DNA of 64,000 nucleotides from Mustelus asterias (Eukaryota): assembly GCF_964213995.1 (NCBI RefSeq), contig NW_027590121.1, positions 186,001 through 250,000 of the forward strand, read 5' to 3'. How positions within the stretch are numbered: the stretch's first letter is position 1; every line of letters begins with the position of its first letter. Position numbers and translations under genes: made by a program. This document shows positions 11,840 to 48,183 of the stretch, in pieces. The notes under the pieces are model-generated. The model ran no database searches. It was given only the letters and a program-made list of their open reading frames with translations, and was not told the DNA's origin.

Positions 11840-13100
11840 ATGGAGAAACCATGGAAATGTGCGGACTGTGGGAAGAGATACAGAGCCCCATCTCAGCTGG
11901 AAGCTCATCGGCGCAGTCACACTGGGGAGAGGCCATTCATCTGCTCTCAGTGTGGGGAGGGATTCGCTCTGTTATCCACGTTGCAGAAACACCAGCGAGT
12001 TCACACTGGAGAGAGACCGTTCACCTGCTCTCAGTGTGGTAACAAGTTCACTCGGTTATCCAATCTGCAGACACACCAGCGAGTTCACACTGGGGAGAGG
12101 CCATTCACCTGCTCTCAGTGTGGGAAGGGATTCAGTCAGTTTTCCAGCCTGCGGACACACCAGCGAGTTCACACCGGGGAGAGACCATTCACCTGCTCTC
12201 AGTGTGGGGAAGGATTCGCTCTGTTATCCACGTTGCAGAAACACCAGCGAGTTCACACTGGAGAAAGACCGTTCACCTGCTCTCAGTGTGGGAACAAGTT
12301 CACTCGGTTATCCAATCTGCAGTCACACCAGCGAGTTCACACTGGGGAGAGGCCATTTACCTGCTCTCAGTGTGGGAAGGGATTCAGTCAGTTTTCCAGC
12401 CTGCGGACACACCAGTGAGTTCACACCGGGGAGAGACCATTCACCTGCTGTCAGTGTGGGGAGGGATTCAGAGCTTCATCCAGCCTGCTGATACACCAGC
12501 GAGTTCACACTGGGGAGAGGCCCTTCACCTGCTCTCAGTGTGGGGAGGGATTCAGAGCTTCATCCAGCCTGCGGACACACCAGCAAGTTCACACTGGGGA
12601 GAGACCGTTCACCTGCTCTCAGTGTGGGAAGGGATTCACTCGGTCATCCAGCCTGCGGACACACCAGCGAATTCACACTGGGGAGAGGCCGTTCACCTGC
12701 TCTCAGTGTGGGAAGGAATTCATAACTTCATCCAACCTGCGGACACACCAACGAGTTCACACTGGGGAGAGGCCGTTCACCTGCTCTCAGTGTGGGAAGG
12801 AATTCATAACTTCATCCCACCTGTGGAGGCACCAGCGAGTTCACACTGGGGAGAGACCATTCACCTGCTCTGTGTGGGAAGCGGTTCAGTGATTCATCCA
12901 TCCAGCAGAAACACCAACAAGTTCACACTGGGGAGAAACCGTTCATCTGCTCTGTGTGTGGGAAGGGATTCTCTCGGTTATTCTGCCTGCAGACACACCA
13001 GGGAGTTCACACTGGGGAGAGACCGTTCAGCTGCTCTGTGTGTGAGAAGAGATTCAGTCTTTCATCTCAGCTGTTGGTACACCAGCGAGTTCACGAGTGG
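11840..13100 (+). pseudogene. ZNF-A: C2H2 array of about 15 fingers with TGA at 12416-12418 and a frameshift near 12870 (pseudogene or truncated 6-finger protein)
   Basis: MEKPWKC start, [13 protein letters not shown] linkers, fingers continue in frame past the stop; acceptor TTTTACAG at 11491. Confidence 0.85.
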
Positions 13101-13447
13101 TTCCAGTGTTCGATTTTGCTGTTCTTGTTTCTGCTTTCAATTATATCGGTCAATGGGGAGAGTTGGAGGGTTTCTTTCTGCTGGACTGGCCGGTCTCACA
13201 ACTTTGCCTCCATTGGGCTGATGCTCTTTGAGTTTTGTTGCGAATACCTGGTTTCAGATTTCACAAGGATCACAGAGTGACGGTGTTAGGAAGTTCAGAG
13301 ATATTTAGTCAGCATTTCTGTTTGAAACCCCCCAAATGCCCATCCAATTTCCTTTGTAATTGTTTATTGTCTCCACTTCCTCCTCCCTCGTAGGCAGCGA
13401 GTTCCAGGTCATTACCATTCGCTGCATCAAAATATTCTTCCTCACAT

Positions 13448-13765
13448 GGGCAGCACGGTAGCACAGTGGTTAGCACTGCTGCTTCACAGCTCCAGGGACC
13501 TGGGTTCGATTCCCGGCTTGGGTCACTGTCTGTGTGGAGTTTGCACATTCTCCTCGTGTCTGTGTGGGTTTCCTCCGGATGCTCTGGTTTCCTCCCACAG
13601 TCCAAAGATGTGTGGGTTAGGCTGATTGGGCATGCTAAAAATTGCCCCTTAGAGTCCTGAGATGCGGAGGTTAGAGGGATTAGCGGGTAAATGTGTAGGG
13701 GTAGGGCCTGGGTGGGATTGTGGTCGGTGCAGACTCGATGGGCCAAATGGCCTCTGATCCTATGA
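13448..13765 (+). mobile_element. HE1-like V-SINE
   Basis: tRNA head (TAGCACAGTGG, GGTTCGATTCC), core and CR1-type tail. Confidence 0.9.
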
Positions 13766-13769
13766 TCCC

Positions 13770-13922
13770 ACCCAAAACTTTAAATTTGCTTGTCATCCTT
13801 GTCCCATCAGCTAATAGGAACAGCTTTTCTTTGTCCACCTTATCTAAACCTGTCAGAATCTTGTCCACCTCTATCAAATCTCCCCTCAACCTCCTTTGCT
13901 CCAAGGGGAACAACCCCAGCCT
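13770..13922 (-). mobile_element. CR1 fragment
   Basis: LGLFPLEQRRLRGDLIEV. Confidence 0.75.
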
Positions 13923-14267
13923 GACATTGACAATAAAGATCAATCCAACAGAATATGTTACCTTCTGAAATCAAATGGAATGTTCAATTTCTGTTTTAAA
14001 GGTACTGTGAATATATTGTCCTGGATAATAACGGAATTGGAATAACTAACCTTGGGTGTGGTTGAATGGAATATATCAATCTGGAACCCACTTACAGACT
14101 AGTGAAAGTCTGGAATGTGTCGCTGGAAATCCCTCCGGAACAGCACTTTGGGTCACCTATACCTCAGGCATTGCAGTAGTTCAAGAAGGCAGTGTTGGGG
14201 TTGACATATTCTGTTATAATTGATGGACTGTAGTTTGAATGTGAGGCATTATAGGACTGGACTATGG

Positions 14268-15515
14268 AGTCATAGAGGTTTACAGCATGGAAATAGGCCC
14301 ATCAGCCCAACTTGTCCATGCTGCCCTTTTTTTAAAACCCCTTAGCTAATCCCAATTGCCCGCATTTGGCCCATATCCCTCTATACCCATCTTATCCATG
14401 TAACTATCTAAAAGCTTTTTAAAAGACAAAATTGTACCCGCCTCTCCTACTACCTCTGGCACTTGGTCCAGACACTCACCACCCTCTGTGTGAAAAAATT
14501 GCCCCTTTCGACACTTTTGTATCTCTCCCCTCTCACCTTAAACCTATGCCTTCTAGTTTTAGACTCCCCTACTTTTGGGAAAAGATATTGACTATCTACC
14601 TGATCTATGCCCCTCATTATTTTATAGCCCTCTATAAGGTCACCCCTCAGCCTCCTGCGCTCCAGAGAAAAAAGTCCCAGTCTATCCAGCCTCTCCTTAT
14701 AACTCAAACCATCCAGTCCCAGTAGCATCCTAGTAAATCTTTTCTGCACTATTTCTAGTTTAATAATACCCTTTCTATAATAGGATGACCAGAACTGCAC
14801 GCAGTATTCCACGTGTGGCCTTACCAATGTCTTGTACAACTTCAACAAGACATCCCAACTCCTGTATTCAATGTTCTGACCGATGAAACCAAGCATGCCG
14901 AATGCCTTCTTCACCATTCTGTCCACCTGTGACTCCACTTTCAAGGAGCTATGAACCTGTACCCCTAGATCTCTGTTCTGTAACTCTCCCCAACACCCTA
15001 CCATTAACTGAGTAAGTCCTGCCCTGGTTCGATCGCCCAAAATGTATCACCTCGCATTTATCTGAATTAAACTCCATCTGCCATTCGTCAGCCCACTGGC
15101 ACAATTGATCAAGATCCCGTTGCAATCAGAGATAACTTTCTTCACTGTCCACTATGCCACCAATCTTGGTGTCATCTGCAAACTTACTAACCGTGCCTCC
15201 TATATTCTCATCCAAATCATTAATATAAATGACAAATAACAGTGGACCCAGCACTGATCCCCGAGGCACACTGCTGGTCACAGGCCTCCAGTTTGAAAAA
15301 CAACCCTCTACAACCACCCTCTGGCTTCTGTCAAGAAGCCAATTTTGTATCCATTTAGATACCTCACCCTGGATCCCGTGAGATTTTAACCTTATGCAAC
15401 AACCTACCATGCGGTACTTTGTCAGAGATCTTGCTAAAGTTCATGTTGACAACATCAACTGCACTGCCCTCATCTATCTTCTTAGTTACCCCTTCAAAAA
15501 ACTCAATCAAATTTG
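14268..15515 (-). mobile_element. 5'-truncated CR1 LINE
   Basis: Minus ORFs 15126-15410 (GSVLGP, FADD) and 14450-15040. Confidence 0.9.
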
Positions 15516-15649
15516 ACCACAGCTCAGTTTCTGCAATCATGGACCATTAAAGCTGCTTAGCAGTGCCCTGACAGAGGACCTGGTGAGAATATTTCCTCAT
15601 TGAGTTAGAATTAAACTTATTCCAGGACTGGCTGGTGTTCAGTGGCTGA

Positions 15650-16140
15650 GATACCCAAATCTGTGAAAAGGGGGTCCGACCAATCAACAAACAGTGGTAG
15701 GTAGTTGATTAAGAAGTTAAGAAGCGTTCTCAGGCATTGTTTAAATTATTTTATCATAAATTTGTGATGAGAACTGTGAGGGGCTATGACCCAATAGTCA
15801 CTGAAGTGACGGTATACTCCAAGTAGCACTGGACTGAAAAGCGAGAGTAGATTCTAATGAATGGTTATAATCCTACCCTAGCATGGCCAGTGAAAAATCA
15901 GAGCTCGAGTGATCAAGAATAATAATGTGATAAGGTGCGAAGGAATAAGATCTCACCGTGTAAAAATCAAGTTGGGATGACATTTGTATCACATAGGAGT
16001 CAATGAATGGAATACATTGGGTATTGCACATTCCCTAGCCTGGCCCGATTGAACACATGAATGGGCTATTGAAACAACAAATCAAGCTTGACCACACACT
16101 CAAAGAGTGGCAAAGGCCTTACATAATTTGAATAATAGGC
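15650..16140 (+). mobile_element. Possible heavily decayed retroviral pol (integrase) remnant
   Basis: 16018-16090 reads WVLHIP*PGPIEHMNGLLKQQIK, resembling the integrase W..HIPY.P...G.IER.NG.LK motif. Confidence 0.4.
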
Positions 16141-16152
16141 CACAAAAAGGAG

Positions 16153-16471
16153 GGGTGGCACGGCAGCACAGTGGTTAGCACTGCAGCCTCACAGCACCAG
16201 GGACCTGGATTTGACTCCTGGCTTGTGTCACCGTCTGTGTGGAGTTTGCACATTCTCCCCGTGTCTGCGTGGGTTTCATCCAAGTGCACCGGTTTCCTTC
16301 CACACTCCAAAGATGTGGGTTAGGTTGATTGGCCATGATAAATTGCCCTTTAGTGTCAGGGTGTTATAGGGTAAATAAGTATGGTTATGGGGGTAGGGCC
16401 TGGGTGGGATTGTGGTCGGTGCAGATTGGATGGGCCGAATGGCCTCCTTCTGCACTGTAGGGATTCTATGA
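16153..16471 (+). mobile_element. HE1-like V-SINE
   Basis: Head, core and CR1-type tail. Confidence 0.9.
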
Positions 16472-16929
16472 ACCCTCTTGAGTAAGATGATAAAACAACC
16501 TGTCCCTTCAATTCTTCCTCCAGACAGGGAATATGACACACCTGTATGTAAGGGTGGCAAGGTGTGGGTACATATCTCAAACCAAACCCCACAGAAAAGG
16601 GGAAATAATTTCTGCTGGACATGCTTGGCTTGTATCTCCTAAGCTGCGTTCACTCCCGATGCATGGGGGATGGAAGGCATCCAGTAAAATATGCACTCAA
16701 AACAAATGTACTTGTGCAGAAGGACAGAAATATTATTTGTATAACATCACTGTCCAGGCATCCGTGCTCAATGTGGCGGATTGTAGCCAATGGCCTTTTG
16801 TGGTGGTATGTCCTCTCCATAACTCCTCATACATGAAGCTTGTACCTTACAGCTGAGTCATGGCCAATGTCAATAGGAATTATCGCCAGTTAATGATACT
16901 ATTATGCATGAATTTGGACAAGTTTGGTG

Positions 16930-20040: not shown

Positions 20041-20094
20041 GTAGTGGTAGGAAAAAGACTTTATTATTCAGGATAAAATTAATGTACTCTATAG

Positions 20095-20545: not shown

Positions 20546-21478
20546 TCACTTGTGAACTCGCTGGTGTCTCTGCAGGTGGGATGACTGAGTGAATCCCTTC
20601 CCACACACAGAGCAGGTGAATGGTCTCTCCCCAGTGTGAACTCGCTGGTGTGTCAGCAGGTTCGATGACCGATTGAATCCCTTCCCACACACAGAGCAGA
20701 TAAATGGCTTCTCCCCAGTGTGAACCCGCTGGTGTGTCAGCAGGGTAGATAACTCACAGAATCCCATCTCACACTCTGAGCAGGTGAAAGGCCTCTCCCT
20801 GTCCCTGCTGTGAATTTGCTGATGTCTCAGCAGGTTGGCTAACTGAGTGAATCCCTTCCCACAGTTGGAGCAGGTGAACGGCCTCTCCCCAGTGTGAACT
20901 CGCTGGTGTGTCAGCAGGGTGGAGGAATCTCCGAATCCTTTCCCACACACGGAGCAGATGAACGGCCTCTCTCCAGTGTGAACTCGCTGACGTGTCAGCA
21001 GGTCAGATGAATCTCTGAATCCTTTCCCACACTCTGAGCAGGTGAATGGTCTCTCCCCAGTGTGAACTCGATGGTGCCTCTGCAGACTGGATGACCGAGT
21101 GAATCTCTTCCCACAGTCAGAGCAGATGAATTGCCTCTCCTTGGTGTGAACTTGTTGGTGTACCAGTAGGGTGGATGAATCTCTGCATCTTTTCCCACAC
21201 ACTGAGCAGCTGAATGGTCTCATCCCTGTGTGAACTCGATGGTGTCTCACTAGGTTGGATGAAATACTGAATTTCTTCCCACACACACAGCAGGTGAATG
21301 GCCTCTCCCTGCTGTGAACTCGCTGGTGTGTAAGCAGGTCGGATGCATTAGTAAATCTCTTCCCACACTGAGAGCAGGTGAATGGTCTTTCCCCGGTGTG
21401 ACTGCGTCGATGAATTTCCAACTCAGATGGGGACTTGAATCCCTTTCCACAATCCTCACATTTCCACGGTTTCCCCAT
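20546..21478 (-). CDS. ZNF-B: C2H2 protein, 310 aa, 11 fingers (one His to Arg)
   Basis: Intact ORF MGKPWKC...VHK*; acceptor near 21621; family 3' UTR at 20345-20545. Confidence 0.85.
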
Positions 21479-22299
21479 GGTGTTGGTGTCTGTGTCTCGG
21501 TGCTTTTCCAGTCACAGGAATGGTAAAATGGGCGATGGTTTGCCTCATCCTATTAAATCGAGTGACTCTGGTGTGAAGTTTGGTTTGAGATTTCTTAAAG
21601 GATATTCCCTTTTAATATCCTGTAAAAGAAGTTTGCAAATGTCATCACTGTCAGTTCAGCTCAGAAATTCAGAACAGACAACCAGTCACTGATGGGATAC
21701 ATTCTGCCACATGGATAATTATGGATTGTAACATTGTCATTAAAACATGTGATACCAAAGCCACAGCAATGTGGTTGAATCTTAAGTGCCCACCAAGGGC
21801 AACTAGAGATGGGCAACCAATGCTGGCAACCAGCGACGCCCGTGTCCCACAAATGAATACAAAAGTGATTGAGTGTAAATAATTTACATTTAAAAATGTC
21901 TTCTGTCAACGGTGTAAATGCTCATTTATAAATTTATATATGTATATATTTACATATTTATAAATGCTCATTTTGTCATTGATTTCCTGAAGCTCCTGTT
22001 TTGAGTTTCAGACAGTTCTATGCCAAGTGTTTGAGGTGATTAAAAGTCTTTCATCTTACTCTTTGCATATCGATATTCACTAAAGCTACACAGATTGATT
22101 TTCTTCTCATTATAAATATATTTTCAATACCTAAAAGGACAGTCTTTCAGCAATCCCCATTTTCCTTCTTTCTGGTTGATAATTAAGGGTCTGTACACTT
22201 GGCTTTATTTATGACTTTGTTCCTAATTTTATCGGTTTCCCCACCCGCCACAATCTCCACAACACAGCAAAAATAATCACTATTCACTCATTGGGATTG

Positions 22300-22420
22300 T
22301 CAATGGCGGGCTTTATACCCAGCATTCCCCGCGATGCTGAAAGTCCCCTTTCTCCACTGCAGGAGTGTAGTGCGCAGGCCCAATGCTCATCCAGTTGGAG
22401 CATGCGCAGTATGAGTGATG
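22300..22420. promoter_or_regulatory. Probable ZNF-B promoter (ZNF143/Staf-like site and NRF1-like sites)
   Basis: TACCCAGCATTCCCCGCG 22316-22333; GTGCGCAGG; GCATGCGCA. Confidence 0.5.
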
Positions 22421-22968
22421 TCTCCTGAGACAAAGACGTTTCTTTGGTTAACAGGCAGTCGGTAAGGATGCGTGTGTCGATGTCTCAGCAGATTATCACT
22501 GTTTTTAAAGCTCTCCTCACAGTCAGGACATTTAAAAGTTCTTGCATCAGAGTGAGTACGCTGGTGTCTCAACAGGTTGGATGAATTAATGAACCCCTTC
22601 CCACACATGGAGCAGGTGAATGGCCTCTCCCCAGTGTGAGTGCGCTGGTGTACAGTGAATTCAGATGATTTCCTGAACCCAGTCCCGCAGTGTGAGCACC
22701 TGAATGGCCTCTGGTCAGTGTGAACACATTGATGGGACATCAGGTCCCCAGAACTTTTATAGCCCTTCCCGCAGTCTGGACATTTGAAAGGTCTCAGGTC
22801 AGTGTGAACTCGCTGGTGTTGCAGCAGGTTGGATGACTCTCTGAAGCCCTTCCCACACATGGAGCAGGTGAATGGCCTCTCCCCAGTGTGAGTGCGCTGA
22901 TGGATTTCCAGCTGGGACGGCCATTTGAATCCCTTCCCACAATCCTCACATTTCCACGGTTTCTCCAT
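22387..22968 (-). CDS. ZNF-C: C2H2 protein, 6 fingers, apparently 3'-truncated
   Basis: MEKPWKC at 22968; six fingers then non-finger sequence; acceptor near 23315. Confidence 0.7.
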   Translation of the reverse strand: MEKPWKCEDCGKGFKWPSQLEIHQRTHTGERPFTCSMCGKGFRESSNLLQHQRVHTDLRPFKCPDCGKGYKSSGDLMSHQCVHTDQRPFRCSHCGTGFRKSSEFTVHQRTHTGERPFTCSMCGKGFINSSNLLRHQRTHSDARTFKCPDCEESFKNSDNLLRHRHTHPYRLPVNQRNVFVSGDITHTAHAPTG

Positions 22969-23599
22969 GGTGCCGATGTGTCTCTCCAGGTTGATGATCA
23001 GTTGAAAGCTCATCACACACACACGTGTACAGTTTCTCCCCAATGTGAATGGTGTGATGTTTTTTCAGGGTGTGTAACTGGTTAAAGCTCTTTCCAGTCA
23101 GTTCACTGGAACACCTTCACTCGGGTGTGTTTGTGTGTGTGTCTCGGTGCTTTTCCAATCACACTGATGTCTGAAATCTTTTCCCACAGACAGAACAAAC
23201 AAACATTTCTCCTTCCACATTGATATTCAGGTCCTGATGAATCGAGTGACTGTCAGATCTCAATGTGATGTTTGATTTAAGTTTCCCACCTGTCAATCCT
23301 CCCATCCTAATCCCCTGTAAAAGGAGTTTACAGAAGTTATCAGTGTAAATACAGGATAGAAATTCAAAACAGACAATTCTAGTTCGGATGGAACATCCTT
23401 TCCTTTCTTATTCCCTCCAATCATATGGTCCAAACGAACTGAAAGACAAAAATCAACAACCAAGCATCAACAAAACCAAAGGGAACCTTCCTCACTGAAC
23501 CAGAAAGTTCGGACCAGTGTCTCTGAACCTTTTATGTGGCCTCGGGCACTAGGACCCAGTAAAAACAGAAATCCTGAATCCCGTCCACTCTCTGTTGTG

Positions 23600-23915
23600 T
23601 CACAATGGGCGTCACCAAGACGCCAGCGCATGCGCTCTGCCCTCCGCTGAACTCAGATGGCGGCTGGTAACCGGGGTCTTCGCCCCGGGAGGACAAACCG
23701 GAGCTGCAAACGCGGAACCTGCAGGTCCGTATTCGCGGTTTGAGGCTTTCAGCAGGTATTTAGAAACCCTCCCCGTTCACCCGCCGACTCCATCGGCCCT
23801 GCGCGTTTCCACATCTTTACCGGCTGCGGATCAGACAAAAGGATCCTCCCTTCGCCATCACTAACATCGCGCATGCTCCATACCATGTTCGGTACGGCGC
23901 CTGCGCACTGTTCCC
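23600..23915 (-). promoter_or_regulatory. CpG promoter/first-exon cassette of ZNF-C
   Basis: GCGCATGCGC and GCGCCTGCGCA (NRF1-like), AGATGGCGGC (YY1-like); homologous to 43930-44140 and 56690-57090. Confidence 0.65.
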
Positions 23916-23932
23916 CTATGGTGTGGATAGTG

Positions 23933-24505
23933 GATAAAGAATAAAGAACAGTACAGCACAGGAACAGGCCCTTCGGCCCACAAGCCTGTGCCCATCACGT
24001 TGTCCTATCTAGACCAACCGCCTGTATCTCTCTACCCCGTCTGTTCATGTGTCAATCCAGATAAGTTTTAAATGTTGCTAATGTATCTGCCCCGAACCAC
24101 CTTCCTTGGCAGTGCATTCCAGGCCCCCACCACCCTCTGTGTAAAAAACTTCCCCCTCATGTCTCCACTGAACCTTTCCCCCCCCTTACTTTGAATTGTG
24201 CTCTCTTTATGATTGTCATTTTTGCCCAGGGAAAAAGCTTCCAACTGTTACCTTATCTATGCACCTCATAATTTTATAAACTTCTATCAGGTCACCCCAT
24301 GGCCTCCGTCTTTCCAGTTATTCAGCCTTTCCTCATAGCTAATGCCCTCCATGCCGTGCAACATCCAGGTAAACATTTTCTGTACTCCCTCCAAAGCCAC
24401 CACGTCCTTCTGATAGAGTGCAGACCACAATTGGACACAGTATTCCAAACGTGACCTAACCAATATTTTATATAACTGTAACATAATTTGCCAACTTTTA
24501 AACTC
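23933..24505 (-). mobile_element. CR1 3' fragment
   Basis: LVRSRLEYCVQLWS; (ATAAAGA)n tail on the + strand. Confidence 0.85.
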
Positions 24506-24597
24506 AACATTCACCACCATGGGGAATGTTGGTTAAAATCACCTCCTTTGAAAGTCCCAAATAGTTAAGTCACTGTTTTTGCTTTGATGTGAACATT

Positions 24598-24892
24598 AAG
24601 GTGACACGGTGGTTAGCCCTGCTGCCTCACAGTGCCAGGGACCCGGATTCGATTCCCAGCCTTGTGGAGTCTGTGTGGAGTTTGCACGTTCTCTTCGTGT
24701 CTGCGTGAGTTCCCTCTGGGTGCTCTGGTTTCCTCCCACAGTCCGAAAGACGTGCTGGTTCGGTACATTGGCCATGCTGAATTCTCCCTCAGTGAACCCG
24801 AGCAGGCGCCGGAGTGTGGCGACTATGGGGTTTTCACAGTAACTTCATTGCAATGTGAATGTAAGCCTACTTATGATGCTAATAAATAAATA
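24598..24892 (+). mobile_element. V-SINE, alternative-tail variant
   Basis: Head and core plus AATGTAAGCCTACTT...AATAAATAAA. Confidence 0.85.
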
Positions 24893-25079
24893 GACTGTGT
24901 CCTTTCACTAACAAGACCAGCAGCAAACATTCCCCATCCCCAGGTATCTGTGGGCAAGATGATCTTTGGCTTTCTTGAACTTTGCAGCCCATGTGGTGAA
25001 GATGCTCCCACAATGCGTTAGGTAAGAGTTACAGGTTATTCACCCAGTGATGATGAAGGAACGATGATACATGTCAATA

Positions 25080-25640
25080 ATAACTATCTCTATTTATATG
25101 TCTTCCATTTCATAGACTTTCCCAGGGCATTTCAAAGAAGTGTTGTACATTAAGTGCCTTTGCAGGTCAGTGAGCTCAGGGGTGATGATGAACAAGACTT
25201 GGTGTGAGTAAGCACACGGCCAGCAGAGATTTGGATGAGAAGTCTTAAAGACTTCAGGGAGATTGAATGTAGGAGGCCGGGAATGCATTCAGATAGTTAA
25301 GTCTGGAGTTCTCGAAGGGATGGATGAGAGTTCCAGCTGCAGATGAGCAGAATCAAGGACAGAGTCAGATGATGTTACTGAGATGGAAATTGGCAGTCTT
25401 GGTGATTATTCAGATATGAGGTCAGGAGCTCAGTTTAGAGTGAAAGCTGTTGTTGAGGCTGGGAACAGTCCGGTTCAGTCTCAGACAGTTGTCAGGGAGA
25501 AGGATGGAGTCAGTAGTTTGGGAGTGGAGTTTGTAGCGGGGACTGAAGAGAAACAATGGTTTTCTTCTTTCCAGTAGTTAAATGGAGCACATTGCTGTTC
25601 ATTCAGTACTGGATATCCGACAGGGCAGGACAGTGTGCGA
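25080..25640 (-). mobile_element. Old L2-like LINE fragment, repeated at about 26600-27130
   Basis: Shared text AGGTCAGTGAGC.CAGGGGTGATG...GTTACTGAG.TGGAAAT...CTCAGACAGTTG.CAGGGAGA; clade assignment tentative. Confidence 0.5.
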
Positions 25641-26019
25641 GTTGGAGGGGAATTTGGAGATTATGGTGTTCGAATGCAACTGGTCCTCCTTGGTGCGGAA
25701 GTTGAAGGTTTGGAGAATTTTGTCAAAGTTCTAGAATTCAAAATAGAAAATCACCTCCTTTGCCCCTGCGTCTTTCACCTCTCTCCCCTCCCGTAGAGGC
25801 CAGAGTCTTGTGTAGGCCCAGACTGGGTGGTAAGTCCCCTTCCCTAAAGGACATTAGTGAACCAGTTGGGTTTTTATGACAATCCAGGAGCTTCCATGAT
25901 CACTTTTTCCTAGTGTCGACCCCACAGATTACCAGATTCATTCAGCTCAATTTCATAACCTGCCTTTGTGTTTTTGTGGGCACTCTCTCACTCCCTTTTC
26001 TCTGTTTTAAATTAATTTC

Positions 26020-26562
26020 ATGAGGTATTGAAAGAGGAGGATATGTAGTCAGGAAACTCAAACCAAACATTCACATCAGGATCTGATGGAGTGTCCAAAT
26101 TATGGGATTTTGACCATTGAAGGAAAAAGCACTGTTCACAGTGGGGAAAAACCGTACACATGTTCTATGTGTGGATGAGGCTTCAACCAATCGTCTAACC
26201 TGTCGAGACACTATCACACCGGGGAAAACTGTGGAAACATGAGGACTGTGAGAAGGCCTTCAGTTACCGTCTAAACTGGAGACTCAGCGATGCAGTCACA
26301 CAAGGGAGAGGCTGTGAACTGGCTCTGAGTGTGGGTTGGGATTCAATAAGTCAAACAACCTGTTGAAACACCAGCAGGTTCACTCGGGGGAGAGGCCATT
26401 CACCTGCTCTGTATGTGGGAAACGATTCACTCAGTCATCATTGCCCGTGACACAACAGCGAGTTCACACTGACAAGAGACCTTTTAAATGCCCAGACTGT
26501 GGGAAGTGCTATAAAAGTTCCCAGGAACTGACATCCCATCAATATGTTCACACTGAAGAGAG
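26020..26562 (+). pseudogene. Decayed ZNF paralog of ZNF-D
   Basis: Mutated acceptor and start, stops and frameshifts; residual fingers in ORF 26336-26608. Confidence 0.85.
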
Positions 26563-27407
26563 GCTGGAATTAGGGGAGAGCATCGATGATGGAGAATTGT
26601 GTGACTGAAGGATATTACAGAGGGAGGAGTGGTCGCAGTCATGGAGAAATTTGGAAACAAGAACAGGAATTTTAAAATGTTAGTGGTTCTTAAACAGGAA
26701 CCTTTATAGGTCAGTGAGCACAGGGGTGATGGGTGAACAAGTCTTGAATAATTACACAGACAGCAGAGTTTTGGATGACCTCAGGATTGCAGGGAGGCTG
26801 AATGCGGGAGGCCAGCAAAGAGTGCTCTGGGAGAGTTAAGTCCAGAAGTAACAAAGGAATGGATGAGAGTTTCTGAACAAGATGATTTGAGACTCGGGCG
26901 ATGTTACTGAGGTGGAAATAGACATTCTGGGTGATGGTGAGGATATGTGGCTGGAAGCTCAGTTTGGGATGAGCCAGGACACTGAGGTTGTGAGAAGTCT
27001 GGTTCAGCCTCAGACAGTTGCCAGGGAGAGAGAGTGGAGTCTGTTGTGAGGACTGAAGACAACGGCTTTGTTCTTAATATTCAATTGGGGGAAGTTTCTG
27101 TTCATCCAGTACTGGATGTCAGACACGTCAGGATGGTGTGTGAGTTGAAAAGGAACTTGGAGATGATGGTGTTCCCATACGCCTGCTTCATTGCTCCATC
27201 GAGGTGGTGGAGGTTGTGGGAGTTTGAAATATTTGAAATTCCTTTTTTCCTGTGCTGCCCAATTCTGTCTCGCCCTCTCCTACTTCTGTCTCTCTGCCTC
27301 TTCCCCCTCGATCTCTTCTCCCAGATTGTCCAGAGTCTTGTGTCACCCCTGACCAGGGAGCAGGTTTCCTTCCCTGAAGGACATTAGTGAATCAGTTGCG
27401 TTTTTTT

Positions 27408-27692
27408 AAAGTTAAAAGTTTATTCATTAGTCACAAGTAGGCTTACATTAACACTGCAATGAAGTTACTGTGAAATTACCCGAGTCTCCACAGTCCGGCG
27501 CCTGTTCGGGTCAATGCACCTAACCAGCACGTCTTTCAGACTGTGGGAGGAAACCGGAGCACCCGGAGGAAACCCACACAAACTCCGGGAGAACGTGCAA
27601 ACTCCACACAGACTATGACCCAAGCCGGGAATTGAACCTGGGTCCCTGGCACTGTGAGGTAGCAGTGCTGATCACTGTGCCACCGTGGCGCC
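27408..27692 (-). mobile_element. V-SINE, alternative-tail variant
   Basis: Reverse complement of the 24598-24892 type. Confidence 0.85.
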
Positions 27693-27953
27693 TAATGACA
27701 ATCCGGCAGTTTCCATGGTCACTTTTTCCTGGTGCCGGCCCCACAAATGACCAGATTAATTCAGCTCAATTTCACAACCTGTCTTTGAGTTTCTGTGGGT
27801 TCTCTCTCACTGCCTTTTTTCCATTTAAATCAATTTCACAGGGTTTTAGAAGAGGAGGATTTTCAGTCAGGAAACACAAAGCGAACATCACATCAGGATC
27901 TGATGGAGTCGCCCAATTTATTGTAACCATTGTATCATTATTGGATTTTGAAC

Positions 27954-29228
27954 ATGGAAGAAAAAAGCATCGATTGCAGTGGGGAGAATCTGTACACGTG
28001 TTCTGTGTATGAATCATCTGACCCCACGAACCACAAGTGCCGTCACACTGAAGAGAAGCCGTTGAAATGTGGGGACTGCGAGGAAGGATTCCATTCCCCA
28101 TCTGAACTGGAAATTCACCAGCGAGTTCATGCTGGGGAGAGGCCGTTCACCTGCTCTGTGTGTGGGAAAGGATTCACTCAGTCGTTCAACCTGCTGAGAC
28201 ACCGGCAAGTTCACACTGGAGAGAGACCATTCACCTGCTCCAAATGTGGGAAGGGATTCACTCAGTCCTCCAATCTGCTGGTACACCAGAGAGTTCACAC
28301 CGGGGAGAGGCCATTCACCTGCTCCCAGTGTGGGAAGGGATTCATTCACACAAGCAACCTGCTATCACACCAGCGAGTTCACACTGACAAGAGACCTTTT
28401 AAATGTCCAGCATGTGGGAAGTGCTTTAAAAGTTCCCGGGAACTGACACACCATCAGCAAGTTCACACTGAGGAAAGACCTTTTTACTGTTCAGAATGTG
28501 GAAAGGGCTATAAAAGTTCCTGGGAACTGACGTACCACCAACGTGTTCACACTGAGGAGAGACCGTTCAGGTGCTCTCACTGCGGGACTGGGTTCAGGCA
28601 ATCATCTCAACTCACTGTACACCAGCGAATTCACACTGGGAAAAGGCCATTCACCTGCACGGAGTGTGGGAAGGGATTAAGTCGGTCATCCCAACTCATG
28701 GTGCACCAGCGGGTTCACTCTGGAGAGAGACCTTTCAAGTGCCTCGACTGTGGGAATTACTATAAAAGTTCTGGAGAACTGAAATCCCATCAGCATGTTC
28801 ACACTGACAAGAGACCGTTCAGATGCTCTCACTGTGCAATTGGATTCAGGCAATCATCCCATCTCACTGAACACCAGCGAATTCACACTGGGGAGAGACC
28901 GTTCACCTGCTCCAATTGTGGGAAGGGATTCACTCAGTCCTCCCAACTCATGGCTCACCAGCGGGTTCACACTGAGGAGAGACCTTTCAAATGCCCAGAC
29001 TGTGGGAAGTGCTACAAACGATCTGGAGATCTGAGGTCCCACCAACGTGTTCACACTGACGAGAGGCCATTCATGTGCTCTCAATGTGGGACTGGGTTCA
29101 GTCGATCGTCGATACTAATTGAACACCAGCGAGTTCACACTGGGGAGAAACCATTCACCTGCTCCAAGTGTGGGAAGGGATTTACTCGGAAATCCAACCT
29201 GCTGACGCATCAGCAAATTCATAAGTGA
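27954..29228 (+). CDS. ZNF-D: C2H2 protein, 14 fingers
   Basis: Intact ORF from MEEKSIDC to IHK*; acceptor TTTCACAG at 27841. Confidence 0.9.
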
Positions 29229-30915: not shown

Positions 30916-30934
30916 CTGGAAAGCATTCTTTCTG

Positions 30935-33439: not shown

Positions 33440-34654
33440 ATGGAGAAATCGGGGAAAGATGAGGATTGTGGTAAGGAATTCCGTATCCCGTCTGCACTGC
33501 AAACTCATCAACATATTCACACTGGGGAGAGACTGTTCCCCTGCTCCAAGTGTGGGGAAGGAGACTGCTCCCCATCTGCCCTGAAGATTCATCAATGCAG
33601 CCACACTGGGGAGAGGCCCTTCATCTGCTCCGAGTGTGGGAAGGGTTTTCTCCAGGCAGCCGACCTGTGGAATCACCAAGCAGTTCACAGTAGGGAGAGG
33701 CTGTACACCTGCTCTGATTGTGGGAAGGGATTCACTCAGTTATCCCACCTGCTGACACACCAGCAAGTTCACACTGGGGAAAAACCGTTCAACTGCTCTG
33801 AGTGTGGGAAGCAATTCAATCATTCATCTGAACTTTTGAATCACCAACAAATCCACACCGGAGAGCGACCATTCACCTGCTCCGACTGTGGAAAGGGTTT
33901 CACTCAGTCATCTCACCTGCAGATACACCAGCGAGCCCACACTAAGGAGAGGCCTTTCAACTGCTCTGAGTGCAGGAAGTGTTTTATTCAGTTATCACAC
34001 CTAGTGACTCACCAGGGAGTCCACAGGAGGGAGAGGCCGTTCCCCTGCTCCGAGTGTGGGAAGCGTTTTATTCAGTTATCACACCTAGTGACACACCAAG
34101 GAACCCACACAAGGGAGAGGCCATTCAGCTGCCCCGAATGTGGGAAACGTTTTATCCAATCGTCACACCTAATGTCACACCAGGGAGTTCACAGCAGGGA
34201 GAGGCCATTCGTCTGCTCCGAGTGTGGGAGGCGTTTTATTCAATCATCCCACCTAGTGTCACACCAGGAGGTTCACACCAGGGAGAGGCCATTCACCTGT
34301 TCCGAGTGTGGCAGGGGATTCATTCAGTTATCCGACCTGCAGAATCACCAGCAAGTTCACACCGGGGAGAGGCCGTTCACCTGCTCTGAGTGTGGGAAGG
34401 GATTCACTCGTTCAGCTAACCTGCAGGCACACCGACGTGTTCACACCAGGGAGAGACCATTCACCTGCTCTGAGTGTGGGAAAGGATTCGCTCTTTCATC
34501 TTATCTGCAGAGTCACCAGCAAGTTCACACTGGAGAGAGGCCGTTTATCTGCTCTGAGTGTGGAAAGGGATTCATGCAGTCATCCCACCTGCTGACACAC
34601 CAGCGAGTTCACAAGGATTCACAAAGGGATTCACTCAGTCATCCCACCTGCTGA
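33440..34654 (+). CDS. ZNF-E: C2H2 protein, about 14 fingers (first one degenerate)
   Basis: Intact ORF from MEKSGK; acceptor TTTTACAG near 33104; family 3' UTR at 34670-34870. Confidence 0.9.
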
Positions 34655-40990: not shown

Positions 40991-40997
40991 ATAACAG

Positions 40998-41162
40998 AAT
41001 GAACATGATTCAGTCCTGCATGGGATTACTTATTTACTAATTACTTAAATAATAGATAGATAAATAAATGAACATGATTCAGTCCTGCATGGGATTACTT
41101 ATTAATTACTTCAATAACAGATAGATAAATAAATAAATGAACATGATTCAGTCCTGCATGGG
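40998..41162. repeat. Three copies of a 27-bp 3' UTR motif, period about 69 bp
   Basis: AATGAACATGATTCAGTCCTGCATGGG x3. Confidence 0.85.
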
Positions 41163-42512
41163 GTGAGCAGCAACAGCAGAATCCAATCCCTGCAGTGACT
41201 TGTGAACTTGCAGGTGTCTCAGTAGATTGGCTGACCGAGCAAATCTCTTCCCACATACGGAGCAGGTGAACGATCTCTCTCCTGTGTGAACCTGCTGGTG
41301 TCTCAGCAGGTGGGATGACTGAGTGAACCTTTTCCCACACATGGAGCAGGTGAATGATCTCTCTCCAGTGTGAATTTGCTGGTGTCTCAGCAGGTCCTTA
41401 GAGCTTTTAAAGCTTTTCTCACAGTCAGAACACTTAAAAGGTCTCTGATCAGTGTGGACTAGTTGATGTGCAATGAGCTGGGGTGGCTGAGTGAATCGTT
41501 TCCCACATGTGGAGCAAGCGAAGGGTTTCTCCCCAGTGTGAATTCGCTCGTGTATCAGGAGCTGGGCTGAATCAGTGAATCCCTTCCCACACACACAGCA
41601 AATGAATGGCTTCTCCCCGGTGTGAACTCGCTGGTGTCTCAGACGGTGGGATGAATGGGTGAATCCCATCCCACACACCGAGCAGGTGAACGGTTTCTCC
41701 CCAGTGTGAACTCGCTGGTGTGTCACCAAATCCTGTTTACTTTTAAAGCTCTTCTCACAGTCAGAACACTGAAATGGTCTCTTATCAGAGTGAACTCGCT
41801 GGTGTGTTTGCAGCTGGGATAAACGTCCGAATCTCCTCTCACACACGGAGCAGGTGAATGGCTTCTCCCCAGTGTGAGTGCGCTGATGGACTTGTAAATC
41901 ATTTTTACTTTTAAATCTCTTCTCACAGTCAGAACATTGAAATGGTCTCTGATCAGTGTGAACAAGTTGGTGTGTCAGAAGGTGGGATGACTGAGTGAAT
42001 CCCTTCCCACACACTGAGCAGGTGAACGGTCTCACCGCCATGTGAGTGCGCTGGTGTCTCAGGAGGTCCTTTGTGCTTTTAAAGCTTTTCTCACAATCAG
42101 AACACTGAAACAGTCTCTGATCGGAGTGAACCTGCCGGTGAATCAGGAGGCTTGATAAAGCATGACATCTCCTCCCACATTCGAGGCAGGTGAATGGCCT
42201 CTCACCAGTGTGAACACGCCGGTGTGTATAGAGGCTGGATGAGTAAGCAAATCCTTTCCCACACTCAGAGCAGGTGAACGGCCTCTCTCCAGTGTGAATG
42301 CGACGATGAATATCCAATTCGGACGGGTAATTGAATCCCCTCCCACAGTCCCCACATTTCAATGGTTTCTCTGTGGAGCGGGTATCCTCATGTGACTCCA
42401 GATTGGATGATGAGTTGATGCCTTGTTTACACAGAATGTGTGTCGGGTCACTAATCACTGAGAATTGTGTGGGTTTTTCCAGCCTGTTTAAAGCTCTTTC
42501 CACATTCAGCAC
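41148..42512 (-). CDS. ZNF-F: C2H2 array, 14 fingers, open frame but the family ATG is missing
   Basis: STEKPLKC in place of MEKPWKC; track ORF starts at GTG; family stop changed to TCA, so it reads into the 3' UTR. Confidence 0.7.
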   Translation of the reverse strand: MLNVERALNRLEKPTQFSVISDPTHILCKQGINSSSNLESHEDTRSTEKPLKCGDCGRGFNYPSELDIHRRIHTGERPFTCSECGKGFAYSSSLYTHRRVHTGERPFTCLECGRRCHALSSLLIHRQVHSDQRLFQCSDCEKSFKSTKDLLRHQRTHMAVRPFTCSVCGKGFTQSSHLLTHQLVHTDQRPFQCSDCEKRFKSKNDLQVHQRTHTGEKPFTCSVCERRFGRLSQLQTHQRVHSDKRPFQCSDCEKSFKSKQDLVTHQRVHTGEKPFTCSVCGMGFTHSSHRLRHQRVHTGEKPFICCVCGKGFTDSAQLLIHERIHTGEKPFACSTCGKRFTQPPQLIAHQLVHTDQRPFKCSDCEKSFKSSKDLLRHQQIHTGERSFTCSMCGKRFTQSSHLLRHQQVHTGERSFTCSVCGKRFARSANLLRHLQVHKSLQGLDSAVAAHPMQD

Positions 42513-43832: not shown

Positions 43833-43929
43833 TTCCCAGAGATCAGAGTCCTCATTGATTTGAGGCCAAAGTGTAACCTCTTATTTATTGTCCCCCTCCC
43901 CCATCCTCTGATGTGAACCATCCTCCAGT

Positions 43930-44540
43930 GGCTGAGCCAGGATGGGGCCGTTAACCTGGGCCTGTTCCCGGGAGGGAGGGAGGGAGAAGCCCCGCAGCTG
44001 CAAACCAGGGAGCTGACAATGATTCTGAAGGGTTTCCAAAGTGTTTCCAAATCCTCCCAGCCACCGCCTAACGCTGACTCCGCTTCTCCGGGACAAACAA
44101 GCACCAAGGACAGCAATGACACTGCGCATGCTCCACATCACAATGCCCGGGCACTGATTGACGGCAGCACCGGACCAATAGGAAGAGGGGGCGGGGCTGG
44201 AGGACCGAGCGGGAGTGGCTGGTCCTCCAACCAATCGGAGTGAATGAGGGGCGGGGCCGGGCTGCGACTGAAGCATGCGCAGTGTGAGGGATGGCAACGC
44301 AGAGAAGCTTCTGTCGCTCTTCCACAATTGATGAGGTGAGATTGTCGATGTGGAGGGTGTGAAGAACCGGGAGTTTTCTGAAACGTGTTCTGTAAACAGC
44401 AAGCCCCCAAAACAAACGGACCGCAATCATTTACAATGAACGTGTCCGCAGTTCTTCAGATTCGGCCCGAGTTAGCGTACGCCATCTTTATTCGGGGCAA
44501 CATGCAGCAGAAGGCATGCCTGTCCGCCATCTTTGTAGGG
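43930..44540. promoter_or_regulatory. CpG promoter of ZNF-F
   Basis: TGCGCATGC, GCATGCGCA, GC boxes, two CCAAT boxes, two CGCCATCTT (YY1-like). Confidence 0.7.
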
Positions 44541-44639
44541 GGCAATGCTTCATTCAGATGCAATTCAACCCCTCGTTCCTGCTCCACCATTCAATAAACT
44601 GATTTCAGTCTCCACTGCGCTCTGGGGTCGAGAATTACA

Positions 44640-45160
44640 GTAAGAAGTCTCACAACACCAGGGTAAAGTCCAACAGGTTTATTTGGTAGCAAATACCATA
44701 AGCTTTCGGAGCGCTGCCCCTTCGTCAGATGGAGTGAAAATCTGTTCTCCAACAGTGCACAGAGACACAACATCAAGTTACAGAATACTGATTAGAATGC
44801 AAATCTCTACAGCCAGCCAGGTCTTAAAGGTACAGATAATGTGGGTGGAGGGAACATTAAACACAGGTTAAAGAGATGTGTATTGTCTCCAGACAGAACA
44901 GCTAGTAAGATTCTGCAAGATCAGGAGGCAAGCTGTGGGGGTTACTGATAATGTGACATAAATCCAACATCCCGGTTTAGGCCGTCCTCATGTGTGCGGA
45001 ACTTGGCTATCAGTTTCTGCTCAGCGACTCTGCGCTGTCGTGTGTCGTGAAGGCCGCCTTGGAGAACGCTTACCTGAAGATCCAAGGCTGAATGTCCGTC
45101 ACTGCTGAAGTGCTCCCCCACAGGAAGAGAACAGTCTTGCCTGGTGATTGTTGAGCGGAT
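44640..45160 (-). mobile_element. Penelope-like element 3' part (GIY-YIG C-terminus and terminus)
   Basis: LPVGEHFSSDGHS...AEQKLIAKFRTHEDGLNRD. Confidence 0.85.
44696..44732 (-). ncRNA. Minimal hammerhead ribozyme motif
   Basis: CCAT-CTGACGA-A-GGGGC agc GCTCC-GAAA-GC-TT-ATGG. Confidence 0.75.
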
Positions 45161-45629
45161 TGTCTCAATCTTAGTGACAAAGAAACTCCATGAGCTTCTC
45201 AGACTTGTTGGAGGTGAGGATGGAGAGAATAGGGGAAAGGGAGAGCTTTTCAATAAGGAACTGACTGACGTGTAAATCCTTCCCTTTCAATCCCCTGACT
45301 GGTGTCAGAGATAATAAAAATGCTCAGCACACTTGTGTGTTTAACACAAACCTTATTTATTTGACTTATATCCAGAATATCAATCACTATAACTGGGCTG
45401 GAGTTGATTAACCTGCTCTGTAGGAATTCTATGAACATCACAGAAAGAAACCCCAAAGCATATGTTTCTATCCTGGATGTGATGTACGAATCACTGTGTT
45501 TCTTCCTATTTCAGGAGAAAAAACATAATTAAACTAAATCAAATAAATTGAGGAAAAAATGAAGGGAGCAGCCCCTTAAAGGGATACCGCCTTAAACAAA
45601 AAACAAATCATGAATGAAACTTAAAACAT

Positions 45630-46700
45630 CACAAAGTATGTAGAGTGGCAGATAGTATTGAGGAAGCAGGGGGGCTGCAGAAGGACTTGGACAGGCTAGG
45701 AGAGTGGGCAAAGAAGTGGCAGATGGAATACAATGTGGGAAAGTGTGAGGTTATGCACTTTGGAAGGAGGAATGGAGGCTAGACTAATTTCTAAATGGGG
45801 AAATGCTTCGGAAATCAGAAACACAAAGGGACTTGGGAGTCCTTGTTCAGGATTCTCTTAAGGTTAACGTGCAGGTTCAGTCGGCAGTTAGGAAGGCAAA
45901 TGCAATGTTGGCATTCATGTCGAGAGGGCTAGAATACAAGTAAGAAGTCTCACAACACCAGGTTAAAGTCCAACAGGTTTATTTGGTAGCAAATACCATA
46001 AGCTTTCGGATCTTGCTGCTCCTTCGTCAGAAGGAGGGGTCTCTGTTCTTCAACAGTGCACAGACACAGAAATCAAGTTACAGAATACTAATTAGAATGC
46101 AAATCTCTACGCAGGGATGTATTTCTGAGGCTGTATGAAGCTCTGGCAGACTGCATTTGAAATACTGTGAGCAGTTTTGGGCCCCGTATCTAAGGAAGGA
46201 TGTGCTGGCCTTGGAAAGGATCCAGAGAAAGTTCACAAGAATGATCCCTGGAATGAAGAGCTTGTCATATGAGGAATGGTTGAGGATTCTGGGTCTGTAC
46301 TCGTTGGAGTTTAGAAGGATGAGGGGGGATCTTATTGAAATCTACAGGATACTGCGAGGCCTGGATTGAGTGGACGTGGAGAGGATGTTTCCACTAGTAG
46401 GAAAAACTAGAACCAGAGGGCACAACCTCAGACTAAAGGGACGATGCTTTAAAACAGAGATGAGGAGGAATTTCTTCAGCCAGAGAGTGTTGAATCTGTG
46501 GAACTCTTTGCCGCAGGAGGCTGTGGAGGCCAGGTCATTGGGTACCTTTAAGACAGAGACAGATAGGTTCTTGATTAATGAGGGGATCAGGGGTTATGGG
46601 GAAAAGGCAGAATAGGGATGAGAAAAATATCAGCCATGATTGAATGGCAGAGCAGACTTGATGGGCTGAGTGGCCTTCTGCTCTTATGTCTTATGGTCTA
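45630..46700 (+). mobile_element. CR1 fragment with a nested Penelope terminus (45940-46110, minus, degenerate hammerhead)
   Basis: CR1 ORF2 pieces 46157-46615; insert matches 44640-44810. Confidence 0.85.
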
Positions 46701-47280
46701 AATAAAACGTGATTAAAAGGGTTGATAAGGCACCCCAGGCCCCATGGTGCCCAATGAGCACGGAAAGCCTCGACAGTGCCAGTAGACACCACATGCTCCC
46801 TCTCTCAGGATACTAGGCTGTGAATGTAGAGGTGGTAGAGGGGTGGACAGTCGAGTTGGACAACTCCTGCGGTCACCCCACTGCCCATCCTGTTGATGGC
46901 ACATTTGGCGAGGCCCAAAGCAGGCCGAGCAATCCATTTCAGGGCAATTAGGGATGGCCCACAGCTGACAAATTACTAAAAAAGGTTTAAAAGGAGGTCT
47001 TCCTTCTTTCTCACCCCTCTCTGCACAGGATGTCGCTATGTTTACTCATGAACTTGCAGGTATCTGAACAACTTCGTTCAATTAACAAATCCTTTCACAC
47101 CGTGTGCAGGTTAATGCCTTCTTCCCAGTGGGAAATCCCTGTTGTACAGCGAGTTCGGATGATTCCCTGAACTTGTCCCACAATGACAGCACCTGAACAG
47201 TACCTGGTCAGCATGCATCTGTTGATGGAACACAGGTTCTTTCCTCAGGGTGAACAGACTGTTGGAATGAACAAGTGAAT

Positions 47281-48183
47281 TCATTTCCCCACAGGGCAGG
47301 TGAACAGCTTCACCCTGGTGTGAACTCGCTGGTGTCTCAGCAAGCTGAATGACTGGGTGAATCCCTTTCCACACACTGAGCAGATGAATGGCCTCTCCCC
47401 AGTGTGAACTCGCTGGTGTGTCAGCAAGCTGGATGACTTAACGAATCCTTGCCCACACTCCATGCAGATGAATGGTCTCTCCCCAGTGTGAATTCGCTGG
47501 TGTTCAGTGAGGTCAGATGATTGCTTGAACCCAGTCCCACAGTGAGAGCATCCGAATGGTCTCTCGTCAGTGTGAACTCGCTGGTGTCTCACTAATCTGG
47601 ATGATTTAGTGAATCCTTTCCCACACTCCATGCAGACGAACGGTCTCTCCCCAGTGTGAATTCGCTGGTGTTCAGAGAGTTCAGATGATCGCTTGAACCC
47701 AGTCCCACAGTGAGAGCACCTGAACGGTCTCTCGTCAGTGTGAACAACTTGATGGCGCATCAATTCCCCAGAACTTTTATAGCACTTCCCACAGTGTGGG
47801 CACTGAAATGGTCTCTCCTCAGTGTGAACTCGTTGATGGTCCATGAGGTGATCTGACCGAGTGAATCTCTTCCCACAGATGGAGCAGGCGAATGGCCTCT
47901 CCCCAGTGTGAACACCCTGGTGTCTCAGCATTTGGGATGATTGAGTAAATCCCTTCCCACACTCAGAGCAGATAAACGGCCTGTCTCCAGTGTGAATGTG
48001 CTGCTGAGTTTCCAGCTTTACAGAATAATTGAGTCCCTTCTCACAGTGCTCACAGTTCCAGGGTTTCTCCATGCTGCTCGTGTCCTTGTGTCTCTCCAGG
48101 TTGGAGGTAAAGTTGAAAGCTTGTCCACACCCAGAGCATATGTACAGTTCCTCTCCGCTGTGAACGGTGCTTTTTTCTTCCAT
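47281..48183 (-). CDS. ZNF-G: C2H2 protein, 8 intact fingers and 2 degenerate N-terminal fingers; decayed fingers follow to about 47040
   Basis: [11 protein letters not shown] start homologous to ZNF-D; 3' UTR remnant at 45320-45490. Confidence 0.8.

Follow-up and report, generated by a model that had tools for sequence, protein, structure and literature searches.

We propose that the C2H2 proteins encoded in this stretch of Mustelus asterias DNA belong to a finger-only family with thousands of copies, and that their conserved lead finger is a DNA-binding anchor of the array front and not a separate effector module, a reading to which we assign a probability of about one half. The lead finger carries the signature W-K-C..P-S-x-L-E-x-H-R-R, and genome-wide the codon pattern P-S-x-L-E-x-H-[RQH]-R has 2,986 matches and its reversed control none, so that the six helices quoted in the preliminary description, all of them present, occur far beyond chance. 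No published description of this lead finger was found in the literature, shark zinc-finger counts being already in print, and a PDB sequence search and the ESM Atlas gave nothing for it beyond generic fingers.

Seven C2H2 genes that encode fingers only, together with a single pseudogene, lie in the window, that is the whole stretch of 64,000 nucleotides that was analyzed. The preliminary description presented the first finger as conserved; a clean start with an intact copy is limited to the genes at 11840, 21478 and 22968, and a clean translated first copy is absent in the other four of the seven (genes 5, 6, 7, and 8). Gene 1 (plus strand) has a splice acceptor at 11492, a 348-nt leader of decayed linker and fossil fingers (11492..11839) with five stops in the ATG frame, and an ORF at 11840..12418 (192 aa, six fingers) with the intact lead finger RAPSQLEAH at 11852..11920, its array being cut by a stop after those six fingers and followed by more fingers to about 13260. 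Gene 2 (minus strand, 20546..21478, 310 aa, 10 fingers) lies behind an acceptor at 21619 and a 141-nt leader with two in-frame stops, and its intact lead finger KSPSELEIH is at 21398..21466. Gene 3 (minus strand, 22387..22968, 193 aa, six fingers) has its acceptor at 23314, a 346-nt leader with five in-frame stops and the intact lead finger KWPSQLEIH at 22888..22956; upstream of it a CpG-rich stretch (23560..23920, minus strand) that may serve as its promoter contains motifs which we take to be NRF1-like and YY1-like. A frameshifted type-B pseudogene (26020..26608, plus strand) is a paralog of genes 5 and 8. The type-B gene 5 (plus strand, 27954..29228, 424 aa) has 14 fingers behind a decayed finger 0, an acceptor at 27842, a 112-nt leader with one in-frame stop, and the signature finger HSPSELEIH in second position (28062..28130) with Trp replaced by Leu. 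Gene 6 (plus strand, 33440..34654, 404 aa, 13 fingers; acceptor 33105, five in-frame stops) has a lead finger, RIPSALQTH at 33452-33520, that is without the first Cys, Trp and Glu+5, and gene 7 (minus strand, 41148..42374, acceptor 42697) is an open array of 14 fingers with ACA at the ATG site and the signature finger NYPSELDIH at 42294-42362. The type-B gene 8 (minus strand, 47281..48183, 300 aa, eight fingers) has a decayed finger 0 and a decayed signature finger (47992-48060), and it is the only window gene in which the frame is open from the acceptor (48265) to the ATG.

The coding part of each gene sits behind a conserved splice acceptor. In type-A genes the exon front consists of a decayed linker and three fossil fingers followed by the lead finger, and the open frame begins at an ATG located where a TGEKP linker would be; its context is strong, with A at -3 in 37/40 genes. 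Of 57 ORFs, 42 have the ATG six residues ahead of the first Cys, the tails behind the arrays measure 0-77 aa, and as read from genomic frames the proteins are C2H2 fingers alone. In type A the frame between acceptor and ATG is closed in every one of the 40 genes, and hence no domain can be contributed by an exon joined at that acceptor; it is also closed in 11 of 13 type-B genes. This frame evidence argues against a FiNZ-style upstream coding exon. Initiation at a CUG ahead of the ATG was rejected, as stops or frameshifts occur there in several intact genes. The description of near-pure finger arrays lacking KRAB, SCAN or BTB also stands: none of the three is among the Pfam matches listed for the seven ORFs (25 of 36 families for one ORF), our own KRAB profile found nothing below E 0.1 over 1.264 Mb (held-out controls 8/8), a SCAN profile had no genomic match below E 1 over the same 1.264 Mb (controls 5/5), and a genome-wide Pfam scan, run without a positive control, found KRAB in 0 of 76 candidates. 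At the genomic level it is thus supported that the family is effector-less.

What its members share is the lead finger, carried first or second behind a Met in 46 of 57 ORFs. Its mean identity across 40 non-redundant genes is 0.76 compared with 0.58-0.59 for later fingers, with Trp before the first Cys in 39, Pro+1 in 37, Glu+5 in 39 and Arg+9 in 39 of these genes, and Lys-5 and the linker Gly in all 40. Pro+1 is combined with Glu+5 in 37/40 first fingers, 2/40 second fingers and 0/274 later fingers. The Pro at +1 and the preceding Trp are therefore as first described, as is the acidic residue at +5, the only consistently acidic position, whereas +3, also said to be acidic, is so in just 10/40 lead fingers versus 16% of internal ones. 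Basic residues at -1/+3/+6, described as lacking, are rarer (7/40 versus 124/274 internal) but not absent, and the net charge is +2.4 versus +2.35 for the whole finger and -1.0 versus +0.5 for helix -1 to +6. Nor does the signature finger lead every array, since it does so in type A, where fossil fingers precede it, and is second in type-B genes. Among type-B loci with at least five open fingers it is broken in 16 of 27, representing few independent events, and hence it is not indispensable. Arg+8 and Arg+9 are each kept in 8/19 broken copies (40/48 and 44/48 in intact copies), and Trp, Pro+1 and Glu+5 are still present in 17, 18 and 19 of the 19; since these three are as frequent as in intact copies, that control does not by itself point to selection on them.

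The lead finger is two-faced, in that its base-facing side diversifies like that of internal fingers and its other side is under purifying selection. The selection estimates are pairwise counts only, with pN/pS taken from 20 disjoint gene pairs. At contact positions dN/dS is 1.93 in finger 1 and 1.36-2.22 in finger 2, the last finger and the internal classes, and at -1/+3/+6 pN/pS is 1.33 in finger 1 (P = 0.014), 1.42 in finger 2 and 1.09 in finger 3, not significant, with no difference between fingers 1 and 2 (P = 0.12); the entropy of the lead finger at these positions (2.7/2.5/2.3 bits) resembles that of internal fingers. At helix positions +1/+5/+8/+9, a group picked after seeing the data, dN/dS is 0.16 in finger 1 and 0.46-1.25 in the internal classes, and for the same post hoc group 12/168 sites are changed in finger 1 versus 66/176 (P = 5e-12). 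The linker behind finger 1 is more conserved than that behind finger 2 (P = 0.0006). Leader divergence was set aside as a yardstick for finger 1 because the gene pairs had been selected on the leader. Finger 1 is accordingly more conserved than internal fingers, as initially claimed. With a fast-changing DNA-facing side and a conserved other side, however, the finger likely still reads DNA, to judge from the substitution pattern, and the proposal that it no longer does so is not sustained.

The structural features point the same way. The lead finger fits the Cys2His2 pattern with an aromatic core, Leu+4 and, in the predicted model, the beta-beta-alpha fold; that of gene 2 is predicted to be canonical (pLDDT 88.6), with 1MEY, a DNA-bound designed finger protein, as top fold match (rmsd 1.5). 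A two-copy complex prediction gave a score of 0.01 and a mark of 0.32. A basic residue at -5 is counted among the canonical features of DNA-binding C2H2 fingers, and it is present here together with a TGEKP-type linker, variable -1/+3/+6 positions and an Arg+9 boundary pair (RT, RS, RA, or RN with -2 of finger 2 in 34/40 genes). In the anchor reading that we prefer, the array including its lead finger would read DNA targets that vary, plausibly repeats. Backbone contact and the geometry between fingers 1 and 2 may be why Lys-5, Arg+9 and the TGERP linker are retained, stabilization of the terminal finger may be why Trp, Pro+1, Glu+5 and Arg+8 are, and the proteins would work through occupancy or via partners. 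In general, a Trp can enlarge the core, a Pro can start the helix and Glu/Arg pairs can form i/i+3 and i/i+4 salt bridges. Arg+9 with -2 boundary pairs is a common mode-1 DNA-binding geometry (PMC7293014), and DNA binding requires the TGEKP linker (PMC4427657). Against the anchor reading, +1/+5/+8/+9 are far more constrained than any internal class. The signature is also kept where the finger is second, which a role as terminal cap alone would not account for. The exposed Glu, retained in 12/13 signature fingers that come from sharks (horn, basking, saw and bamboo), a skate and one further record, is not accounted for by DNA docking.

In a dual role, one face would read DNA and the other (Trp, Asp, Pro+1, Glu+5, Arg+8) would dock a shared cofactor and so act as a built-in effector. 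The lead finger is the only part common to nearly all members, its non-contact constraint exceeds every internal class, splicing at the acceptor can bring in no other effector, and Pro+1 with Glu+5 occurs in 0/3,102 fingers (142 proteins) outside cartilaginous fish and in 11/161 (15 proteins) of chondrichthyan type, the outgroup set being the output of a profile search for longer relatives and dominated by long generic arrays. A precedent exists in finger 4 of Kipferl, which binds Rhino (PMC11245307). DNA geometry, however, already accounts for Arg+9 and the linker, broken copies keep Trp, Pro+1 and Glu+5, and the amplified type-B subfamilies have lost the signature finger; we regard a dual role as possible but less likely than the anchor reading. 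The strong form of the preliminary proposal would make the lead finger purely a cofactor-binding module that no longer reads DNA, with the scarcity of basic contact residues, the negative helix and Pro+1 in its favor; the excess of amino-acid change falls precisely at base-facing positions, however, and since Lys-5, the canonical linker and the boundary pairs, all hallmarks of a DNA-docked finger, are kept, this strong form is highly improbable.

Conservation could also be a passive edge effect, in which a cassette is duplicated with finger 1 as its fixed front, spared by finger shuffling, such that common descent and fold constraint suffice. The cassette can indeed be aligned across paralogs from the intron end through finger 1, dS of finger 1 is below that of later fingers, near-invariance extends to 29% of its third codon positions, and one internal class nearly matches its surface dN/dS (0.38 versus 0.33). 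But the last finger, at the opposite edge, is less conserved (0.64), codon positions one and two show smaller differences than position three (0.12, 0.16, and 0.28), and the signature is present across sharks and a skate, all of which make an edge effect an unlikely explanation. A further exon that adds an effector, by another acceptor beside the ATG or downstream, has very little likelihood. From the acceptor onward the majority leader sequence can be read as an acidic linker in open frame, as if the ancestor had an upstream coding exon, and gene 8 and 2/13 type-B genes have an open frame, but two open 36-codon leaders are about the chance expectation, the frame is otherwise closed, and no KRAB or SCAN was found in the 1.264 Mb. 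Moreover, five contigs from four presumed RNA runs of relatives (RNA status guessed, paralogs at ≥80%) join the fossil leader to the lead finger. Comparison of the paralogs brought out no upstream coding block common to them, no RNA sequencing runs carrying this stretch were listed, and of the 1,379 joints in relatives' contigs on 21000-28400, a set swamped by repeats and paralogs, the 15 listed include no first-exon joint; a search with the natural leader peptide for proteins coding for the leader gave two weak candidates, neither of them scored.

KRAB-ZNF proteins bind transposons and recruit TRIM28-type silencing. Like the KZNF genes of tetrapods and lobe-finned fish, the shark genes are C2H2 arrays in tandem clusters, with TGEKP-type linkers, numerous pseudogenes and, by pairwise counts only, diversifying base-contact residues, and unlike them they show neither an N-terminal KRAB nor an open frame for an upstream domain. 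Loss of KRAB gene families is reported in cartilaginous fish (PMC8455134), yet these fish have 475-3,586 ZNF ORFs, and the tandem zinc-finger repertoires of sharks are among the largest counted (both from the supplement to PMC10547256). One finger common to nearly all members is a direct handle on whether an effector hides in the array: if it does, the family would be a solution independent of KRAB and FiNZ; otherwise, an explanation is needed for thousands of DNA readers that lack an effector and are under diversifying selection. It is conceivable, though rather doubtful in our view, that about 2,500 finger-only proteins constitute an elasmobranch transposon-silencing system whose KRAB equivalent, recruiting a common corepressor, is the outer, conserved side of a single finger that reads DNA and is common to sharks and skates. 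The cyprinid FiNZ-ZNF genes (Wells et al., 2023; PMC10547256) have similarly expanded in one lineage without KRAB, and they too combine a short conserved stretch at the N terminus with positively selected contact residues, but FiNZ is a separate 28-aa domain with its own upstream exon, whereas the conserved part in the shark is a finger with a variable DNA face, and silencing is a demonstrated activity of FiNZ genes and a candidate activity of the shark family. ZNF146/OZF likewise consists of C2H2 fingers only, has no KRAB and binds LINE-1 (PMC8896011), although it is a conserved human gene and the shark family has thousands of copies. The model for a dual role remains Kipferl, in which a C2H2 finger (finger 4) within a DNA-binding array docks a heterochromatin protein through the Rhino chromodomain; this Drosophila protein is a ZAD-ZNF with a demonstrated interaction, and the comparison with the shark lead finger is one of analogy.

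We propose that the lead finger of this shark family (the C2H2 finger W-K-C..P-S-x-L-E-x-H-R-R, usually the first in its array) binds DNA and anchors the front of the array, a reading to which we assign a probability of about 0.5. Pro at helix position +1 is combined with Glu at +5 in 37 of the 40 first fingers and in 2 of the 40 second ones, and in none of 274 later fingers. This combination recurs in 11 of the 161 fingers of 15 chondrichthyan-type proteins (including Heterodontus, Cetorhinus, Chiloscyllium and the skate Rhinoraja, with chimaeras and lampreys outside the sample) and is absent from all 3,102 fingers of 142 other fetched proteins, mostly tetrapod. The signature is real, selected and elasmobranch-wide and belongs to a huge effector-less family. 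Across the 3.68-Gb assembly a helix codon pattern matched 2,986 places (reversed control, 0), and 40 of its 47 matches in 1.264 Mb of contiguous tiles (five contigs, picked around earlier matches and a non-random sample) open into at least five fingers, which suggests some 2,500 intact arrays, near-identical copies counted. These tiles hold 57 ORFs with at least five fingers; 42 are type A, with Met six residues ahead of the first Cys, and the 40 left after removal of near-duplicates are the genes counted here, the selection tests using type-A ORFs and excluding the other 15 of 57. The signature finger stands first in 43 of the 57 and second behind a Met in 3, the 11 exceptions being array segments cut off by a stop or by the edge of a tile, genes that lack a start, and genes whose lead finger is broken or atypical. 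It is tandemly duplicated at the gene front at three loci (L106:9251-9514, L082:1793-2056, and L119:4705-4968).

Six-frame translation of the window revealed seven arrays of fingers plus a single decayed copy at 11.8-48.2 kb, and recovered all six lead-finger helices quoted in the preliminary description. An intact lead copy opens the array only in the genes starting at 11840, 21478 and 22968; the other four starts are flawed, as the lead finger at 33440 lacks its first Cys, the array at 42374 has ACA at the start-codon position, the signature finger at 27954 is preceded by a decayed finger, and that at 48183 is itself decayed. Promoter-like motifs of NRF1 type upstream of gene 2 (21478) overlap the 3′ end of the ORF of gene 3 (22968) at 22370-22410. 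The family's intron end and splice acceptor also occur as an orphan copy at 55700-55900 (minus strand), with no finger array behind it. The stretch at 11165-11236 resembles, by eye, a decayed tRNA-Pro; ARAGORN found no tRNA. In a LINE at 57197-61013 (minus strand), ORF1 is GDSL-like (Pfam 5.5e-12) and the reverse transcriptase frame spans 649 aa, with further LINE fragments across the whole window, and a satellite of ~36-bp units (47.7 copies, 91% matches) occupies 62324-63998, reaching the window end. An intact V segment at 10297-10793 (plus strand; Pfam V-set 1.8e-17), by eye of T-cell-receptor alpha/delta-like type, has its leader exon and a canonical 23-nt-spacer recombination signal and lies 700 nt upstream of the acceptor of gene 1. 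It has at least 150 relatives, largely on the same ZNF-rich contigs; a term search of PMC12227049 returned no zinc-finger term.

The type-A splice acceptor mostly lies ~330-370 nt ahead of the ATG (AG at the aligned column in 30/40), the front of the exon resembles an acidic linker, now decayed, plus three fossil fingers, and all 40 leaders have at least two stops in the ATG frame. Type-B genes begin with MEGKST and an extra finger, and their leader is closed in 11 of 13 non-redundant cases drawn from 30 loci. The absence of KRAB and SCAN domains noted earlier was borne out, since profiles that recovered 8/8 KRAB and 5/5 SCAN held-out controls matched nothing in the 1.264 Mb of tiles. In relatives, the joint between fossil leader and lead finger is spanned by five contigs drawn from four sequencing runs presumed to be RNA, which hints that the leader stays in transcripts. 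Taken together, closed leaders, missing KRAB and SCAN and bridging contigs indicate that the proteins are probably finger-only, and it is very improbable that a hidden exon adds an effector through another acceptor or a 3′ exon. In type-A leaders (e.g., 22969-23314 in the window) conservation is higher in the fossil-finger part, where p is 0.28 vs 0.39 in the linker and 0.34 at the intron end; the last residues of the fossil-finger part are recognizable in Heterodontus and Pristiophorus models, and most leaders contain several upstream ATGs. The non-coding leader is possibly under UTR constraint. The extra type-B finger has a nearly fixed, QSSGLSRH-like helix in L121-L150 and in other sharks, partly a query effect; it may serve as another conserved lead finger, one that relaxes the Trp finger next in the array. 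Of the 27 type-B loci with at least five open fingers, 16 carry a broken signature finger, most of them belonging to one amplified subfamily.

Within finger 1, Trp, Asp, Lys−5, Pro+1, Ser+2, Glu+5 and Arg+9 are near-fixed (each 37-40/40), a basic residue at −5 making a phosphate contact, and positions −2, −1, +3 and +6 are variable (entropy 2.3-2.7 bits). Of the acidic +3/+5 pattern described previously Glu+5 stands, but an acid at +3 occurs in just 10/40, and the supposed lack of basic residues at −1/+3/+6 fails in 7/40. Over all pairs, dN/dS at −1/+3/+6 in finger 1 is 1.93, which falls within the 1.36-2.22 spanned by internal classes, finger 2 and the last finger; the corresponding values at +1/+5/+8/+9 are 0.16 and 0.46-1.25. 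Restricting the comparison to 20 disjoint pairs gives 66/135 changes at the contact sites of finger 1 (pN/pS 1.33, P = 0.014), and the +1/+5/+8/+9 group, defined post hoc, shows 12/168 vs 66/176 in finger 2, which is not strictly orthologous across genes. Against a special surface we count that one internal class is nearly as conserved overall (0.38 vs 0.33), that 29% of finger 1 third codon positions are nearly fixed, and that in 19 broken copies only Arg+8 and Arg+9 decay while Trp, Pro+1 and Glu+5 persist.

Fingers 1-3 are canonical in a predicted model, with DNA-bound arrays as nearest fold matches. Binding geometry is set by Arg+9 and the −2 residue of the next finger, with RS, RA, RT and RN as common mode-1 pairs (PMC7293014), and one of these pairs stands at the finger 1-finger 2 boundary in 34/40 genes; the linker, required for DNA binding (PMC4427657), shows stronger conservation behind finger 1 than behind finger 2. 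From the model, boundary pairs, kept linker and basic −5, the lead finger is likely to bind DNA. Under the anchor reading, Trp, Pro+1, Glu+5 and Arg+8 may, on general principles, stabilize the finger. Alternatively these residues could form a docking face like that of Kipferl finger 4, for which there is precedent (PMC11245307), and the finger would then both read DNA and dock a partner; this dual role, argued by analogy, is possible though tentative, and is the sole form in which the effector module of the preliminary description may survive. Its pure cofactor form is highly unlikely, as the finger likely binds DNA, and a passive edge effect is unlikely, if a little less so.

No description of the lead finger was found in the literature searched, with subscription journals largely outside it. 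Wells et al. (2023) link ZNF numbers to retroelement numbers, and their supplement lists 1,223-3,586 ZNF ORFs in several chromosome-level elasmobranch assemblies (PMC10547256); sharks go unmentioned in the main text. KRAB families were lost in cartilaginous fish, according to the whale shark paper (PMC8455134), TRIM33 was tested with ray-finned fish KRAB-like and FiNZ proteins (PMC11603059), and ZNF146/OZF is a finger-only protein that binds LINE-1 (PMC8896011). The shark family is of the tandem-ZNF kind and is not a KRAB-ZNF family.
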